Part shown: positions 9,995 to 38,525 of the stretch, piece after piece
Position numbering within the stretch: the first letter of the stretch is position 1
Layout of the letters: the number at the start of each line of letters is the position of its first letter
Assembly (NCBI GenBank): GCA_951406725.2
Contig: OX597824.1
Location: 48,174,001-48,238,000 of the forward strand
Direction of reading: 5' to 3'
DNA: 64,000 bases
Source of the DNA: Octopus vulgaris
Taxonomy: Eukaryota
The notes under the pieces: model-generated
Database searches by the model: none
What the model was told of the DNA's origin: nothing
Seen by the model: only the letters and a program-made list of their open reading frames with translations
Position numbers and translations under genes: made by a program

Positions 9995-11341
9995 TCATAA
10001 ATTCTTCATCAGTGTGCAAGATTATTAAAGTTTATGAAATTTTTTGCTATCATTTGGCTCTGTACCATGGACAACAAACACAGATTTACTGCTAACACAA
10101 ACCTATTTCAAAAAGAGTACCATGTAACCTGAAGATAATAAATTTCATACATTATGCAACTATTATAGAATTATCCAAATAATATAACGCTTGAGAATTC
10201 ACTATAAAACTATAATTGTTATAGAATAGAAAATGTTACTGCTGCTATGTATAAAAAGTTAATGAGATAAAGCAATTATTAAAAAAATGTTTTGGTGATA
10301 ACTGCTCAAACGAAGTTGCAAATTAAGATTAAATTCCTGATTGGAATCATTCCATGTAACAACATTGCAGACTAAAAATAAGACAACTTCATACTTAAAA
10401 AAAAAGAGAAGCAAACTAAATAAATACAATTTAAGCATTCTAGTGATTGGTGGTGATAATGGTGAAGAGATTAAATATGCTGAGTAATTAAAAACTGAAA
10501 AATGAAACATGAATCAATACAGAAACTTTTCAGTTTAGAATTTGATCTTGAAGGCTAAGCATGAAAATGTAAAACTCAAAGTTTTTTTCACTGAATAGAA
10601 GGGAAGTTGGAAGTTGATGCTATGTGTTCAGTGTAAGGAATAGATACTCAAAAGGTGCAGTAGGATCTTTGGTAGGCTGACAGAAACATTATTTACAGAT
10701 ATTATAATATGCAAAGTGATCATTGTATAGTCACCTCTCTACTTGGCACAACACACTCTTTTCAAATTCGAGAAGTCTACAAGAAGTCCATCTCATTCAT
10801 ACACAATAATTTAAGATGAAAGGCAGCTGCAAATGCCCGAGGGAGATTGACTGACCAGAGTTATGAATGATTCCTAGCAATCCCTTGCAACTAAGACAAA
10901 CACCTGGGAAGTGGTCCACCACATCTTAGGAAATATTCTAGCTTAGTGGCATTTTGTTATTCTGTAAAAGAACCCTTGCACTGTCACTCAATCAAAGAAA
11001 CTTTAATAACTGTACTTGAAAATGTTAGATTGTCACTTCGGTTGTATACACACACACTCACACACATGTATGCATGTACACACACATTGTAAGGCATGAA
11101 ATAGCGTTTGACCCTCTGACCGATAACTAACAAGGAGTTGGCGACCTTCTGTGTCTGTTTTCCATTTGCGCACTTATATGATTTATGAACTTATATGTTT
11201 ATTTTGCTTAGATATAGTGATATAATCTGGTGTTAGAATTCAATAAACATATGCTTCAGAATAAAGCATTAGTTGAGTATAGAGCCTAACTTGAAATTAG
11301 ATAAATGACAAGATACAAAGAAATTATGTAATGAACTCCAT

Positions 11342-11424
11342 AAGCTTACAGCTGTTTCAGCTATAAAATGCAGTGCATTCAAAGATGAGTACATGTGCAT
11401 CATCTTATAGCTTCCTTGGAGCTC
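11342..11424 (-). ncRNA. Type-I minimal hammerhead ribozyme motif (PLE-type; core G5>A, probably inactive)
   Basis: Minus strand: stem I AGCT, core CCAAGGA, 12-bp stem II AGCTATAAGATG/CATTTTATAGCT, GAAAC-AGCT-GUA, stem I AGCT. Confidence 0.7.
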
Positions 11425-11500
11425 CAAGGAAGGTATAAGGAAATGAATAAGTGCTCTGCTCTGAGTGCACTGCATCTTCTAGCAGAAACAGCAGTAAGCT
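11420..11500 (+). ncRNA. Second, more decayed hammerhead motif in the right arm of the palindrome
   Basis: AGCT, CCAAGGA, poorly paired stem II, GAAAC-AGCA-GUA, AGCT. Confidence 0.5.
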
Positions 11501-11574
11501 ACTGAAGTTCATTACATAATTTCCTCTTCCCTTGTCATTTATTTAATTTTGTGTGTGTGTGTGTATGTGTGTGA

Positions 11575-11940
11575 GCATGTGCGGCAGTGTAGTAAAGAAA
11601 CTTGTTTTCCAACCATGTGATCTCAGGTTCAGTTCAAGTGTCTTGTATTATAGCCCTGAGCCAACCAAAGCCTTATGAGTGCGTTAGTGGGTTTGGTAGA
11701 TGGAGGTTGAAAGAAACCTGTCATAAATATATATCTATAAATGAATGTGTGTACTCTTGACATCACATGATACTTGTAAAATATGTAGTGTCGCACAAGC
11801 AAATTCATTTGTTTCCAGTCTTCCGTGAAAAACATGTCGAGCCATGGGAAATATTACATTGTTTGGAAATAAGTGATGGTTGGTATCATCCACTTGTAAA
11901 AAATTTGTTTCAGCTAAAAAGTAACCATTAAATGATGATG
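11575..11940 (+). mobile_element. tRNA-derived SINE (family A head) with RTE-like tail
   Basis: Head GGCAGTGTAGTAAAGAAACTTG...CAGGTTCAGTTC; core TTTGGTAGATGGAGGTTGAAAGAA; tail ending TTAAATGATGATG. Confidence 0.65.
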
Positions 11941-14282
11941 GCATAATGGACAAACACACACACATTATATATATATATATATATATATTTGCTGTTTAAG
12001 TAATTAAAGCTTTGTTAATGATATTGTTGTTGGAAATGATTTGTGCTTACACAGAACTAAAGTTTGTTTATGATATGAGCAGATAGCATGATTTTTTTTT
12101 TCTGCGACAGAATCAGTAAATAATTAGCAGTTTATTATTTTAAATGAGAACATTACATTCCCATTTAGATAAAACAGTTGGTGTTTATATATCACCATCT
12201 AGTCACTTAAAAATGAAACAGTTGATCAGTTTTTAATTGTTACTTGACAAAAAATGAAATGAAAGAAGAAAAAAGTAGGGTAAAATAAAATATTTTAAAT
12301 GAAAGGCTTGGCAGACAAACTTGTAAGGAATGTCCACCTACACAACACAGTAAAACATGAAATGGTTGACCTAATTTGTGAAAAAAAAAAAAATTTTTTT
12401 AATGACATGAAAGGTTTCTAGCAGTAAAGATGAAAGCAGGATTAAACCTAGAAAGCAAATTTCCAGGTAGCTTAAAACTAATTTCTTGCAAGTAGTTTAA
12501 ATTAATTGGAATTAACGAAGCATTCTAACTGTTTAATTTTAAAGTTATTGAAAATATATCAGCACAAACAAATAAAAAGTAAATCACTACACAGTTCACA
12601 TAAATGAACAGCTCTTAAATTTCCCCATATCTGAAAACTTTTGAGCTTCTCATAAACTTTGCTTTATAGCTGTCTGAATACTAGCATCCACAACTCAGAG
12701 CTGCAGTTTGGTTTGGTTTCAAAAGAAAATTGAAGGTATTAAACATTCTACATTAAATTATTTCTTTCATCGATTAAAAAGCAAAAGATTTCATGTTCTA
12801 ATATGTTATATGGATCTTTAATTTGGTTAGAAACAATTATATGTAAAACATTCAAAGCCAATACCCTACACCCTCTCCACAGATGTTAATAGTCTTAAAC
12901 TAGCTGCTTCTAATAAGCTCAAAAACCTATTTTATCTAAACATAGCTTCAAAAATATTAGAAAGAAATTTAGTTAAGCCTAAATATGAACATGAGATTTG
13001 TATGATATAATTTAAGTAGGTATCACAGTAGAGCTCTGCAGAATGGAGACAAGTAGTTTAACTATGAAAAAAATCCTTTTTGCTTGATCATTTTCATGTC
13101 AAAATACATAATTTGAGGACAATTAAATATTTGGAAGTACTGGATGTGAACTTTCTTATATACTTCTGATCAAAATCTTAAATATCGTGTCAGGTTCCCT
13201 CAGTCACCCTTGTATTTCAGACCATTCACAAAGTTTGAACCAGAATGAGGAATACTGTTCAGCAGCCAAAAGCAAAAACGGGACCATGTGCTGGAGCACT
13301 GTAACTTAATTTGTGTTGAAAATGATATAGTCACAAAGAAGACTTTTTTTGCTATATTTTGCAATAGAAATCAATGGGGGTAAAAAAGATAATTGTTATG
13401 AAATATAAAAGTGAAAATTTTATCATTGATTTTCACTTAGGAAAAAAAATTTCCTTCAAGATTTTTATACCATATGAAAGAAAAATTTCTTGCGAATTTG
13501 ATACAGCCATTACTAAATCTGGTAATGAGATGGTGTAAAAGTGCAAAGTCAATAAAAGGGGGGGGGGACCACAGCTGTTCTATAGGATTAGCACGTACTG
13601 ATGCTACTTGTCAAACTGACATATTCCCACATGGCAAGAGCTGAAACAGAACATGAATCCAAGGCTTCAAATATTGAGTTTGAGCCAAAATTAAAAAAAA
13701 AACAGACAAGCTAATTGAACAAATTTCTATGCAAAAATGGACTAAATTGAGCTACATAATAAGTCTTCTAGAGACAAAACTTAACATGGATTTGTCAATG
13801 TTGTTTATTCTCTTTCGCTGTTTTTTGTATGTGGTGTGCGAGGTCCAAATTTTACCTAGCAGATATTCTTGTACATGTAAATTTAATTTTACTTCAAGAA
13901 ATATTGGTCAAATTTTGCCCATAAAAACTATACTGTGCAAAGAATATTATTTTGTAGACTATTAAAGTCTGATGTGATTTTTTTTTTGTTGTTTTCTTCT
14001 AAATTTTGAATACAGATAATTTGTGATTGTGTATACATATTTGTCTTTTTTTCTCTCTCCTACAAGTTTGCTGTAAGTTACAGATGTTTTTAATGCAAAA
14101 GCAAGGAATTTTCACATTTTGCTTTTTTAAATCTAGGTCTACATGCAGTTCTGAGAAATGTACCAGGTGGTGATGGTATGTGCTAAAAACAACATCTAAA
14201 TCTTCTTTAAATCACACACCTTTTCATCTAAAATTTTTTCACTTTTTTTTCTTTCTATTTTTCAAAAGGACTTCTATTGATT

Positions 14283-15134: not shown

Positions 15135-16429
15135 ATTCCTTTAAATGTATAATACTATTCACAATCTTTTACATTATCCACAAAGATGAATTTTAATCAC
15201 AAGTCTAATGTGGTATGAACTCTCTTGTTCCTGAATCATGCAACAATCATACAATTCCTGAATTAGTGAATACAAAACAATGATTATTTTGTTATAAATC
15301 TGAAAGATTTCTTTTCTAAAGAGCAGATGTATTTTTCACAAGTCAAACTGACAGTACTTTTTATATCACTGGTTCAATGCAGCTGCTGCTTAAACTTAAA
15401 CAACAGTTACCAAATAAAGAAACTAAAAAAGCAAGAGAAAAACTAATAATTTTCATTACAAAGGATGCTCTGCTAGAGTGAATGTGTCAAAACAATAAAA
15501 AGGACAAATAAAGCCACATCAATTAGAAAAACACACCACTTAAAGCAGTGCCACTCAAACCTCTACTTTTGTACACAAAATATCACATCCATTGTACAAT
15601 CAGAATCCACCCCATCACCATTCTTGTACAATGTCTATCTGAGAGGGTGCCAACTGCATTCAGCAAACTCATCTAATCTAGATAAGGATGAATAGATAGA
15701 TGGATGCTAAACCTGAATTAATGATAAATTTTCATCGTTCCTTTATGAAATGTTGACTGAATCAATCAACAATGACAATGCCTGAGTCCTTTAATAGAGC
15801 AGGTTTTGTGTGGGTACTGGCAAAGACTGAAAGGTTTTGTAAATTGACATTTTCATGTATTTTTAATCATAGTGCATTTGTAAAGTGATAAACCATTATT
15901 ATTAAACAGGATTGGTACCTATATCCTAACTACTCGATATCTCTGACAGTAGCATAACAAACATTAAAAGATACACTATAACAGCTGTTATATGAGTCGA
16001 GTACCTGAACATAACTTTCTAAAAAATGTTAATTATTCAGAGTGTGTGTGTGTGTGTGCACTTCATATTAACATCACATATTGAACCATTTTTTCAAAAA
16101 CAATGTGTGGCATTATGGTGGCACCTCAACTGCTGAGAACAGAGAACACAATTAACTGAAGGACAAAATAACAAGCAGAAAATATGAAATTCAAGCAAAA
16201 AAAAAAAACAATTAAGAACAATAATTAGCTAATTCATTTGATGTGTCTATATTATGTTGTTCAACCTGCTAGAAATAGTAGTCAGATCTCAATAACATAT
16301 CACCTTCTCTATAATGTTACCACTTGATATGAAAATTATGTATTAATGGAAAACCTCTATTAATGGCTGATGAGTGCTCAGCATTTAAAAACTGTTGTAA
16401 TACTTACATTTAATAAAATGATGTAGTGT

Positions 16430-16878
16430 GAAACGACCGTACCAAATTACACATACATATCTACATACATATATATACACATATTTTTATGTTTTATATC
16501 ACATAATCTCCGAAGAGGCCTTATGATATTTTTGTAAATGTCTCATTTATATCTATATATATATGACCTACCATAAAAGGCTAATATTGGTAAAATGAGA
16601 CATACTTATCTACATGGCCGAAACAGCTGTAAGATGTAATCTATACTTATATTTATATTTACTTATATTTATATTCTCTTTTATATATATTCTACTTATT
16701 ATACAACATTACTCTTTTATGTACACTTTTTATGTACATTCTTTTATGTACACTGATTTGTTCTGCTTTTTTATGTTTAACCCTACAGTCTCTTATGTGG
16801 TGGTTTAATAAAGTATGTGATTGAGTATTATCTGGTAATTGATATTTGATTTAGATGTATTTCTCCATTTTCTTATCT

Positions 16879-19498: not shown

Positions 19499-19675
19499 CA
19501 TATATATATTTATAAGATGGGCTTCTTTCAGTTTCCATCTACCAAATCCACTCACAAGGCTTTGGTCAGCCCAAGGCTATAGAAGACACTTGCCCAAGAT
19601 ACCACGCAGTGGGACTGAACCTGGAACCATGTGGTTGGTAAGCTAGCTACTTACCACACAGCCACTCCTGCACCT
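19266..19675 (-). mobile_element. tRNA-derived SINE family A, near full length
   Basis: Minus strand GGTGCAGGAGTGGCTGTGTGGTAAG...GGTTCAGTCCCACTGCGTGG...GGATTTGGTAGATGGAAACTGAAAGAAG...(TA)n...AATGACTGAAACAAGTAAGAG. Confidence 0.9.
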
Positions 19676-19697
19676 ATAGATTTTTTTTTTATATATA

Positions 19698-20040
19698 TGG
19701 CTCCATGTTAAGAAGTTTGCTTCCAAGCCACATTGTTTCTAGTCCAGTACCACTGCATGGCACTTTGAGCAGCAAATGTCTTCTACTATAGCCCAGGGCC
19801 AATCAAAGCCTTGTGAGAGGATCTGGTAGATAGAAACTCAAAGAAGCCCACTGTATGTGTTTGTGTGCATCTTTGTGTCAGTAATCCACCACATGACAAC
19901 CGGTGCTTGTTTACATCTTCATAACTTGGAGGTTAAACAAAAAAGAAAAAAATCAATAGAATAAGTACCAGGATTCATAAATAAGTACTGGGGTTCAAGT
20001 AAAACCCTTCATGGCTCCAGGAAACAAGTGAAAGATAAAG
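19698..20040 (+). mobile_element. tRNA-derived SINE family A, older copy, head-to-head with the previous one
   Basis: TGGCTCCATGTTAAGAAGTTTGC...GGATCTGGTAGATAGAAACTCAAAGAAG...GAAACAAGTGAAAGA. Confidence 0.8.
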
Positions 20041-23215: not shown

Positions 23216-23793
23216 ACACACATGTGAATGAGAGAGAACAAGAAAGGGGGGGGGGGAGAAATATCTATTTGACCAAGGGTCCTGATAAAACAAAGTTTAA
23301 AATTCCTTCCAAGACATTAAACAGTACGGTGGAAAGGTTGGTTGGGTGGGTGTCTTAACTTTTTGCCAATGCTGGAGCAGAATATAAGAAAATATTATCT
23401 GGTATTAATTAAAATTTGGCTGTAGATTTGTTCTGTGTAAACCGGCCATGAAAAGAAGAAAGAGAGAAGAAAACTAAAGCAAATTATACTGTATTTAGGT
23501 ATTCTAAAAGCCAACAGAATAAGTACTTCTGGAATAAGTTTCAATTAATAAAGTATGTATTTTTTACATTTGCATTTGCAAAATGAATCCAGATTATTTT
23601 TTAATTACATACTATTTGGTACAAACACAATAATTATTTTTTTTAATGGTAACAGATGTGAAGAGTACAACCTTCACAAGAAAGGAGTGTATTTGTTTAA
23701 CATAAATGCGAAGGAAAATATTCATCAATGATAAACATTTACAGTATATAACATTCATGACAACACTTCGTTATATGGTTAAATGTCTGAATG

Positions 23794-23962
23794 AGTCATG
23801 AAAAATTGATTTCATAAAGGTTGAGTGGACCAGATGTCTAATCCTTTAACAAATCTATCCGCGCCCTAAAGTTTTCATGAAGGTTGCTGAAACCAGATGT
23901 CTAATTCTTCAACCGGTCTATCAAAAAATTCAAAACGTTGACAAAAAAGTTCAGCTTCCTAC
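23794..23962. repeat. 169-bp unclassified repeat, copy 1 (two internal ~63-bp-period units)
   Basis: Matches 25225-25393 with 4 transitions; internal AAGGTTG...ACCAGATGTCTAAT.CTT.AAC occurs twice. Confidence 0.9.
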
Positions 23963-25224
23963 TAAATAATTGTTACATGTGCAAATCAAACAATTCTTTT
24001 GCAATATTGCAGCTACAGAATACAAATGATTATTTTTCTCTCCATGGACAGAAGAAGTCGGACCTAATAGAGCAGTTTCAATCTTTTGTAACCACAAGAG
24101 CAAAGAGAGACACATACAACAGTCTTCCATACAGTTCCATCTACCAAATTCACTCACAAGGTATTGACTGGCTATGAGCTATTGTAGAAGAAACTTGCCC
24201 AAAGTGCCACGTAGTAAGATTGAACCCAAAACTGTATGGTTCCAAAGAGCTTCTTAACCACACAGCCTTGCCTGAATTGGAATAAATTGCTTCAAAGTAC
24301 TATTTATGCAAATTGAAGTAATTGGTTGAGTAAACTTACTACCTTTAGTGAATATAACCAGTAGTTATATTTCTTTCTGTGTGTATACCAAATGATATTC
24401 TTTCTCTATTGAGAATCAAATGAGATTTGAAACCAGTCAGGTAGATTAACTTTTCTCCCCTGAGGGAGAAAGCAAAAGACATTTGTTTAGAATTGTTACA
24501 ATACAGCGATGGCTCCAACACATTACTAATAACAGTTTACCTTACATCACACAAGAGATACAGCAGAAAATGAACGCTGTCTATTGCTTAATTATGAAAC
24601 TATTTGTTGCCTTTCGAGGAAATGTCCTGCCATTTAGTAATTAAAATAAATGAAAATAGTAAAGAAATCCTATTTGGATGACATGGTGACTGACTGGTAA
24701 AGATGTTAAAGTTTAAATCCTGATACAATCACGGTATAGTGTCTATGAAAATGACAATCATTGATGATCTATCATGAAAATAGACTTAATATCACTTTGT
24801 GGGATTATGGTGTTAAAGAAGATATTGAACTTTGAACAACCCTGTTTCAATGTACAAATTTACAAATCTATCTAAATTAATGTTAAAAATATAAACCAAC
24901 CTAAGAGATAAAGACTCCATCTGAAAACAAGATTTTAAAACTGCTTTAGAAACTTTCTCTAATCCCTGAAAACTAGATAAATAACTTTGCCAAATACCAT
25001 GGCTTAGAGGCTTTTAAATGTAAGTCACACTGTAAAGAAGTAGTTTGCAAAAATTAACATAGTGTTAGCTCATTAATTCTAGCATTCTGATTGGTTTTAA
25101 TTTTGTGATAATATGAAATTGGTCCCCTTTTCAATTGATTATAAATGAAAACAAAAAGAGCAACACCTTAAGAAACTTTTGTCTAAGTTATCCCATCTCT
25201 TTATAATTTCATCTCTTTTCTGAA

Positions 25225-25393
25225 AGTCATGAAAAATTGATTTCATAAAGGTTGAGTGGACCAGATGTCTAATCCTTCAACAAATCTATCCGCGCCCCAA
25301 AGTTTTCATGAAGGTTGCTGAAACCAGATGTCTAATTCTTCAACCGGTTTATCAAAAAATTCAAAACATTGACAAAAAAGTTCAGCTTCCTAC
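25225..25393. repeat. 169-bp unclassified repeat, copy 2
   Basis: Direct repeat of 23794-23962. Confidence 0.9.
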
Positions 25394-35545: not shown

Positions 35546-35987
35546 TAAAAGTGGCCATAAGCAATACTTTTTGCTTCATATACTGTTTCTATCTTGAACA
35601 GAGATTTTCTAACAGACTAGCTTCCTAGTTACAAAATCAGTGACTGTATGACACTGTTTTCTATATGTTACAAGCGAGGTAAATGGCTGCCATGCCTGGC
35701 AATGAGTACCCACCACTGAGGAGGTCTGATGCAGATCGAAACCACATGGTCTGGAGGTCTTGAAGCTAGGGTGGCAGGAGTTATCTCTCACTTGCAATAC
35801 ATATTGGGTGGGACAAAATGCACTGAATGAACTAGCTGGAGGAGAGGTCTTCTTAGGGTTAACTGACAGTATTGTCAGCTCTTAGATGACAGCCACAATA
35901 AAGTAGCTATAGGCAATACATTTTGGTTTGTATACTGCTTTTATCTCAAACAGAGGTTTTCTGATAAGCTTCCTAGTTACAAAATCA
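35546..35987 (+). repeat. Diverged ~90-bp direct repeats (35546-35639 and 35899-35987) flanking a ~260-bp GC-richer insert
   Basis: Both copies end AGCTTCCTAGTTACAAAATCA and share GCAATAC..TTT..TATACTG..T.TATCT..AACAGAG.TTTTCT. Confidence 0.75.
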
Positions 35988-37155: not shown

Positions 37156-37811
37156 TGTTATAGTAATAATTATTTTCTAAAGTCCTATAACTTAGTTCTT
37201 ATGCTCGTCATCTATGTTAAGAAAACTGATATGATTTATAAAAAAATATTTTCTACTAGAATATTCTTTTATATATTTCAGGAATAATTATAGAGTTAAT
37301 CTTATTGATATGTATTCAAAATAACATTCTACAATAAACAAAACACAATCCAGTAGACTGTGAAAAATGATGTTAATTTAAAAAAAAAAACTTTGTTGTT
37401 TGGGGAAAAGAAAATGTAACCTCATTAAAAACAACTAGTCAAGCACATAACCCAGCTGTTTCATTCACAATGGTCAAATTGTGAATTATTGGAAGTTAAC
37501 AAATTATCACTGACACTTGCTACATACAATGCCAAATTTTACTAGATTTCTATCATGGTATATGAAGGTAGTGGATTACACCACAGTTGGTAGAGTTATG
37601 AATAAAATGCCTTATGGGATTTATTCAAGTTCCTTCTGTTCTGAATTAAAATCTCACCTGGGAGCTGTCATTGCTGTTTGTTCATCCACAGTCAGTAAGA
37701 TATTAGTGAAATACTAGGATTGAGATGTTTGGCCATACTCTGCCCCGATCCCAAATCATTTCCAGTTATGTTCTTATATTAGAGATCATCATCATTATTA
37801 TTATTATTAAT

Positions 37812-38525
37812 AAGGTGGTGAGCTGGCAGAAATGTTAGCATACTAGGCAAAATGCTAAGTGGTATTTCATCTGTCTTTATGTTCTAAGTTCAAATTTCGC
37901 TGAGGTTGACTTTGCCTTTCATCCTTTCGGGGTCGATAAATTAAGTACCAGTTGTGTACTGGCATCAATCTAATCGACTGGCCCCCATCCCAAAAGTTTT
38001 GGGCCTTGTGCCTAGAGTAGAAAAGATTATTAATATTATTATTAAGGCTGTGAGCTGGCAGAATCATTAGCAGACCAAGTAAAATATTTAGTGGCATTTC
38101 ATCCGTCTTTTGAGTTCAGATTCCATCAAGGTTGACTTTGCCATTCATCCTTTCAGGTTTGATAAAATAAGTACCAGTTGAGCACTGGGTTTGATTTACT
38201 AGACTTACACCCTCCCCCAAACGTGCTGGCCTTGTGCCAAAATTTGAAATTATTATTATTATTCTTAGGATGGGGAAGTGACAAGATGGTGGATCAGTTG
38301 AATTATTAGAGCATTGAACAAAATGTCTTGCTCTATTCATTCTGGCTCTTCAAATTGAGTGCAAATCCCAGAGTTAACTTTGCCCTACATCCTTCTGAAG
38401 TTGATAAAACAAAGTACCAAACCCAGAAATGTAAATTAGCAGAATCCTCTGAGTTTTGGCCAAAATGCCTTGCAACATTTGAGGATCTTTACATTCTGAG
38501 TTAATGTTGCCCTTCATCCTTTACA
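37812..38525 (+). mobile_element. Chain of about four head-to-tail Nin-domain SINEs (family B)
   Basis: Copies start at about 37812, 38044, 38270 and 38435; the first has GCCTTTCATCCTTTCGGGGTCGATAAATTAAGTACCAG intact; the first three are preceded by (ATT)n. Confidence 0.85.

Follow-up and report, generated by a model that had tools for sequence, protein, structure and literature searches.

Metazoan Penelope-like elements (PLEs) carry minimal type-I hammerhead ribozymes in their terminal repeats, and these are reported to require a same-strand dimer, the monomers being without activity (Cervera and De la Pena 2014, PMC4209133). The same work describes opposite-strand minimal hammerheads 100-700 bp apart in PLEs and a truncated element with a second, opposite-strand motif at its 5' end. 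Head-to-head arrangements are also documented at the level of whole insertions: an adjacent inverted, 5'-truncated copy is found at the 5' end of PLEs (Craig et al. 2021, PMC8557442), and inverted repeats that face each other head to head, with a palindrome where they join, have been interpreted as products of self-priming (Arkhipova et al. 2013, PMC3846280). Mutations in the hammerhead core left PLE insertion in vitro unimpaired (PMC11167929). In Octopus vulgaris, PLEs of 190 families make up 6.83% of the genome, and ribozymes are not mentioned in the available part of that account (PMC13282606).

Here, we analyzed a palindrome located in a 64,000-nt stretch of the O. vulgaris genome (hereafter, the window; contig OX597824.1, positions 48,174,001 to 48,238,000). 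In our assessment, this palindrome probably consists of two decayed copies of a high-copy repeat that meet in head-to-head orientation at a self-complementary 4-mer common to both. A hammerhead-bearing PLE pseudo-LTR is the likely identity of the repeat, and the pair likely originated in a single insertion event. The coordinates of all features are collected in Table 1.

Table 1. Features of the palindrome and of its immediate surroundings (window coordinates; minus-strand features are given in reading direction where two ends are separated by a hyphen)
Feature	Position	Strand	Basis or remark
Whole zero-spacer palindrome, two 128-nt arms	11294..11549	.	foldback search, fold, self-alignment
Central self-complementary 4-mer AGCT, stem I 5' strand for both copies	11420..11423	.	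sequence; pattern scan
Left copy, type-I minimal-hammerhead motif	11343..11423	-	descriptor and pattern scan
Left copy, core box	11419-11413	-	A at position 5 is 11417
Left copy, stem II	11412-11401 with 11370-11359	-	pairing check
Left copy, GAAAC	11358-11354	-	pattern scan
Left copy, palindromic loop III	11353-11350	-	pattern scan
Left copy, GTA	11349-11347	-	predicted cut after 11347
Left copy, stem I 3' strand	11346-11343	-	pattern scan
Left copy, downstream part	11222..11342	-	paralogous contigs spanning 11222-11407, 11222-11375, 11228-11402
Right copy, more decayed motif	11420..11500	+	pattern scan and pairing check
Right copy, core box	11424-11430	+	A at position 5 is 11426
Right copy, GAAAC	11485-11489	+	pattern scan
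Right copy, non-palindromic loop	11490-11493	+	pattern scan
Right copy, GTA	11494-11496	+	pattern scan
Right copy, stem I 3' strand	11497-11500	+	pattern scan
AU-rich sequence 3' of right motif; copy stops at (TG)n run	11501..11549	+	sequence, alignment
Further repeated piece adjoining left copy	11073..11189	.	depth peak 540-1,800 vs 16.8 (run X2)
(TG)n run and separate very high-copy repeat bounding right copy, outside palindrome	11550..11900	+	depth up to 214,636 (run X2)

The arms (11294-11421 and 11422-11549) are 80% complementary along the 256 bp of the structure and meet without a spacer at AG|CT (11421/11422), the centre that had been proposed in the preliminary description of this DNA; the 204 bp (11320-11523) given there as the extent of the palindrome are only its inner part. 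Alignment of one arm to the other requires no gaps and contains 25 mismatches in 128 positions, 19 of these within the 102 positions that correspond to 11320-11523. The predicted RNA fold of 11300-11545 has a free energy of -126.3 kcal/mol (z -17.6), which none of 200 shuffled sequences equalled, and in the resulting hairpin, 108-110 of the 128 positions are paired, with the longest runs being 19 and 24. Long hairpins are not rare in the window, given that a second long foldback (339 nt, 71%) is present at 19518-19850, its two arms being inverted copies of a SINE-like repeat, another copy of which is found at ~11580-11730.

The two hammerhead motifs that were proposed to lie on opposite strands are unequally preserved. 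The left arm, read on the minus strand, is a type-I minimal hammerhead with one core mismatch and with stems I, II and III of 5, 12 and 3 bp, respectively, under a descriptor that accepts either C or U at position 4. When one mismatch was allowed and stems of at least 8 (II), 4 (I) and 3 (III) bp were required, thresholds that were set after the motif had been seen, no such motif was detected in 100 dinucleotide shuffles of the 64-kb window. The right arm, in contrast, fails the descriptor, with only 7 of the first 12 positions of stem II paired and a non-palindromic loop III. In both arms, the GAAA box (GAAAC) and the NUH cleavage triplet (GTA) are intact, and the CUGANGA core with G5 is absent, with A at position 5 and C at position 4. 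The general order of the motif (stem-I strand, core box, spacer, GAAAC-loop-GTA, stem-I strand) was nevertheless described correctly: this pattern, which was derived from the very observation it tests and counts two arms that are not independent, matches the window exactly twice, at 11343-11423 on the minus strand and at 11420-11500 on the plus strand, and is not found in any of the 100 shuffles. The 12-bp stem II of the minus-strand arm, with its single G-U pair, is present as well, but its outermost pair is private to this copy, because the letter at 11359 differs from that in the palindrome in 87-93% of the aligned depth in all four sequencing runs, and the other letter leaves an unpaired A on each side. 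Accordingly, GAAA is preceded by an extra A in the majority sequence of the family. Replacing the letters of the palindrome with those of the family majority, which cover the best 40 of 176 rows, repairs stem II in both arms, turning the G-U at 11367 into G-C and a mismatch at 11479 into a pair.

Hammerhead ancestry of the arms, as suggested from the outset, is thus supported both by the shuffles and by the repair of stem II. We consider it highly improbable that the resemblance to a hammerhead arose by coincidence in a family of ordinary, hairpin-rich repeats. Such a coincidence would accommodate the core box with its two deviations from CUGANGA, the additional A that precedes GAAA in the majority sequence, and the failure of Rfam to match the arms, as well as the predicted folding of the isolated arms, for which the ribozyme fold lies 13.5 (left) and 20.3 (right) kcal/mol above the free ensemble, so that the left arm on its own favours another fold; the same predicted gap is 3.1, 3.9 and 16.6 kcal/mol for three control motifs. 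It is, however, at odds with the fact that 100 shuffles of 64 kb did not yield such a motif, with the stem II repair in both arms, and with the intact-core motif at 16510, which has the same stem III.

Three hammerhead motifs in the window, at 16367, 16510 and 35716, have an intact core, compared to 0.06 expected. Two of these, 16367-16441 and 16510-16631, are type-I motifs on the plus strand, 143 nt apart, each with a very long loop II. The second combines a C4-G5 core with a palindromic stem III identical to that of the left arm and is predicted to be a better candidate for cleavage than the palindrome. The third, 35716-35751, also on the plus strand, is a compact motif with a stem II of 6 bp and a stem III of 3 bp; its top Rfam match is HH9 (18.5 bits, E 0.041), under the gathering score of 52. 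The comparison with hammerhead covariance models that had been proposed as a check turned out negative for the palindrome, with no Rfam hammerhead model matching either arm at E<=10. This is weak evidence because Rfam also missed two of the three intact-core motifs in the window, those near 16.4 kb.

A search of the window for further copies of the arms yielded none, with the sister motif at 16614 as the top match outside the palindrome (E 0.06). Scans of a viral and a metagenome collection for family members gave 0 matches each. Looser patterns gave 9, 17 and 3 matches, but none of these 29 has homology outside the motif, and stem II is missing from the 9 that have a core box, so we regard them as chance matches and rejected them. 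Among stop-free frames of at least 55 amino acids in the window, 240 of 246 were compared to Pfam, with six microsatellite frames left out; no family was detected at the cut-off, with six sub-threshold matches, and neither a reverse transcriptase nor a GIY-YIG domain was found in the scanned frames. A 51-codon stop-free frame on the minus strand (11272-11424) crosses the left hammerhead; we rejected it as a coding sequence, with no protein relative found and the frame closed in the right arm.

Contigs from four public runs were aligned to positions 10800-11960 at 80% likeness. The summed depth over the arm greatly exceeds that over single-copy flank, 25,162 vs 16.8 in run X2 and 91,313 vs 54.7 in run X14, and over 11346-11384, the depth ratio is ~1,500 (X2), ~1,670 (X14) and ~1,060 (X13). 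Summed depth is not a copy number, and therefore we read these values only as hundreds to thousands of arm copies. Toward the centre, the depth falls ~20- to 50-fold, to 1,352 and 533 in the two bins adjacent to it (X2). Paralogous contigs extend from ~11222 to 11407-11423 and then continue into unrelated sequence. The central 4-mer (11420-11423) is likely the microhomology at the junction, judging from the alignments; single-arm paralogs align up to 11421-11423. Among 32 listed contig pieces (11,108 more exist), the centre is bridged by at least 31 nt only in the locus itself (X2) and in its ortholog from organism D (X14), and one paralogous contig among the listed pieces (X14) passes the centre by 19 nt.

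The joints found in these contigs show that head-to-head pairing with variable junctions is a habit of the arm family. Pairs of a left arm and a right arm that meet head to head at other junctions account for at least 7 of the 15 listed joints (another 69 are outside the listing), with two more probable; the shorter side of these seven joints is 22-64 letters long. The remaining listed joints are two same-orientation jumps and four that concern the neighbouring repeat. One joint, represented by three contigs from X14, coincides with the point of symmetry in stem II, which is where snap-back priming would place it. The depth profile together with the variable junctions implies that the recurring mobile unit is the single arm rather than the whole palindrome.

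These observations bear directly on the suggestion, also made in the preliminary description, that the palindrome recurs as a MITE-like unit and might be a ribozyme cutting in both directions, which we now consider very doubtful. The zero-spacer symmetry is perfect, both motifs start at the centre, one paralogous contig (X14) does extend 19 nt beyond it, and some depth persists just to the right of it (533 vs 16.8). Against this stand the steep fall in depth toward the centre and the scarcity of bridging of at least 31 nt, which, among the 32 listed pieces and with the caveat that repeats fragment contigs, is confined to the locus and its ortholog. Among those pieces, the palindrome was not seen to recur with the same junction, and other pairs have other junctions. 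Moreover, the ends of the structure are unequal, no target-site duplication longer than 6 nt was found, and no whole unit is repeated among the listed pieces, which is not what a MITE or a palindromic DNA transposon would present; the ribozyme fold is also predicted to be excluded in read-through RNA.

The pair is asymmetric because the left copy reaches ~70 nt further out than the right one. PLE insertions are expected to show a one-sided tail of 30-40 bp, with or without a target-site duplication. Here, the right copy ends against a (TG)n run and a separate repeat, and alignment identified no continuation of it past 11551. The high-copy repeat within 11550-11900 is, we presume, SINE-like. 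On the left, the depth dips to 257 at 11190-11228 (X2), between the copy and the repeated piece at 11073-11189. With (CA)n at 11046-11087 on the left and (TG)n at 11550-11581 on the right, both sides end in TG repeats when followed outward from the centre. The window as a whole is rich in microsatellites, with 33% GC and a CpG observed/expected ratio of 0.22. Elsewhere in it, another dispersed repeat forms a 226-nt tandem pair (37794-38267), and a 177-nt stretch is duplicated locally with 97% identity (23786-23962 and 25219-25393).

Each arm matches a dispersed family, and its changes are mostly private. At 16 listed arm positions where many contigs differ from one arm, the mirror arm has the family letter in 13 cases; of the others, two have a non-family letter in both arms and one has three states. 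The divergence between the arms is 0.23 (Jukes-Cantor, JC). Taken together, the 13 of 16 mirror letters, the shared A5 and the gap-free alignment fit the copying of one template into two arms that subsequently decayed separately. By contrast, two different subfamily copies could have been inserted independently at the same site and met by chance at the 4-mer, but we give this very little credit. It would be compatible with the concentration of arm differences in loop II (10 mismatches in 23 nt; permutation p 0.083) and with the very different loop II letters of other copies. It leaves unaccounted for, however, the 128-nt gap-free alignment, the shared A5 along with two shared non-family letters, and a zero-spacer meeting at the identical position of the element.

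An intact ancestral core of the family is assumed here. Conversion of G5 into A by CpG decay is plausible, given the CpG ratio of the window and the C4-G5 core of the 16510 motif. Position 5 is outside the 40 rows for which family majority letters are available, and the arm or flank rows that were checked all reached a share of at least ~0.76 in some run; this hints that G5 does not dominate the family overwhelmingly, a hint weakened by the unstated rule of row ranking and by CpG decay itself, which lowers the G5 share.

The motif layout shares several features with the minimal type-I hammerheads of metazoan PLEs (PMC4209133), namely, a short stem I, an extra base after the core box, and the G10.1-C11.1 pair. 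With family letters, the left arm agrees with the published consensus in this extra base (between positions 9 and 10.1), in that pair and in the palindromic 15.2-16.2 plus loop III; further similarities are the long stem II, the AU-rich 3' flank and the loop III AGCU, which is also found in the D. willistoni motif. Unlike the motifs described there, both arms have C4 and A5, loop II is much longer, and the distance between the motifs is zero; the extra A that the family has before GAAA is present in only 1 of the 56 published motifs. With respect to genomic arrangement, the closest counterparts are insertions of endonuclease-bearing PLEs (PMC3846280, PMC8557442), with which the locus shares the head-to-head geometry, the junction palindrome, unequal outer ends, recurrent variable junctions and a microsatellite neighbourhood. 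The locus differs from those units in that no ORF lies between or beside the repeats, no target duplication was found, and the junction falls exactly on the stem-I strand common to both motifs. Hence the head-to-head or fold-back insertion of a PLE, one of the two origins suggested initially, is likely to be correct, on the strength of the recurrent variable-junction pairs, the minimal-hammerhead layout and the published precedent, and by this pattern and precedent, the family probably belongs to the PLEs.

The family might instead be a hammerhead-bearing non-autonomous repeat without a PLE ORF of its own, that is, a dispersed retrozyme monomer or a SINE-linked hammerhead, inverted by generic repair or by template switching at the 4-nt microhomology. 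We consider this distinctly unlikely, even though no ORF was linked to the family among the scanned frames of the window, and animal retrozymes, which also occur as monomers, have been proposed to derive from PLE terminal repeats as non-autonomous elements (bioRxiv 10.64898/2026.07.22.740005). Animal non-LTR retrozymes (Cervera and De la Pena 2020, PMC7229834) are similar to the arms in being short, non-coding, low-GC repeats with a type-I hammerhead, but they form tandem units of 150-450 bp with a canonical motif, whereas the copies examined here are non-tandem, minimal and inverted. No tandem array was found at the locus, the motif corresponds to the minimal PLE hammerhead, not to the canonical one of retrozymes, and frequent head-to-head pairs with variable junctions are a described trait of PLEs (PMC8557442, PMC3846280).

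Under the preferred reading, a head-to-head pair of PLE-derived copies, the palindrome could have originated as follows. Reverse transcription would have stopped at the outer edge of the hammerhead, where the self-complementary AGCT would have allowed self-priming or a microhomology-mediated join, producing the inverted partner. The arms would then have decayed neutrally to the present 20% difference. Any read-through RNA is predicted to form an imperfect hairpin of ~110 bp without cleavage, with editing of this hairpin by ADAR as a possible by-product.

Loss of ribozyme activity in this copy, which was suspected early on, is predicted on two grounds. Position 4 of the hammerhead core tolerates C. 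At position 5, both cores have A, and the G5A change abolished hammerhead cleavage (PMC4027429). Furthermore, the copies diverge from the centre, so that transcription reading through on either strand yields the antisense arm first; in such RNA, the ribozyme fold is predicted to be less stable than the hairpin ensemble by 52.4 (minus strand) and 59.7 (plus strand) kcal/mol. Because the hairpin prevails over the ribozyme fold by 52-60 kcal/mol, even restoring G5 is predicted not to yield a functional two-way cutter. Thus, no cleavage is predicted today, owing both to A5 in the two cores and to the folding of read-through RNA into the hairpin.

If transcribed, the hairpin would be a candidate ADAR substrate. 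In this respect, it resembles the hyper-edited Harbinger palindromes of frogs (Porath et al. 2017, PMC5625713), which similarly provide a hairpin of ~200-250 nt from one element, without an inverted neighbour; however, the Harbinger consensus is itself palindromic, whereas the octopus palindrome is a one-off pair, 80% matched, for which editing is conjectural. In run X5, which we guess to be RNA, exact contigs cover the flanks (10823-11262, 11583-11681 and 11652-11960), and none of the 8 listed contigs includes a long exact piece over the palindrome, a pattern that repeats, hairpin dropout or hyper-editing could each cause and that we do not take as evidence. The A>G and T>C counts in this run (16 and 9) resemble those of DNA runs.

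The locus predates the split from a relative with ~4.5% divergence. In the ortholog from organism D (run X14), 11338-11534 contains 3 differences in 197 positions, compared to 13 in 239 in the left flank (Fisher p 0.039, or p 0.34 when one cluster of 6 flank changes is omitted), and the 3 differences in the palindrome contrast with an expectation of 8.9 based on the share of shared words (P 0.023). This excess conservation, noticed after the fact in a single pair of contigs, runs weakly against pure neutrality and is best taken as a lead. Selection for the hairpin of one strand was rejected because G-U-type mismatches show no strand bias, 5 (plus) vs 7 (minus), p 0.77. We also rejected covariation as deduced from the short letters between joints, because the strand of those letters cannot be told. 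A tentative and rather unlikely possibility is that the hammerhead was already non-catalytic or atypical (A5 and the extra A) while the family expanded to about a thousand or more copies, its fold acting as a recognition and template-switch element and not as a ribozyme, and that this hairpin is now kept by selection as a dsRNA substrate in a transcribed region.

As most likely read, the palindrome is one more old head-to-head scar of a retroelement, an architecture described since 2013-2014. The arm family itself is apparently an undescribed, very abundant family of minimal hammerheads: among the matches listed, the literature on octopus and cephalopod hammerhead ribozymes contains no description of it (Repbase and Dfam being outside the scope of that search), and the stem-III motif, searched as text, had no literature match. 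If the family did spread with a dead core, this would provide genomic support for the in vitro observation that cleavage is not needed for PLE insertion (PMC11167929). More generally, insertions of this kind supply long hairpins directly, and in octopus such hairpins would contribute to the high editing load (PMC5625713).
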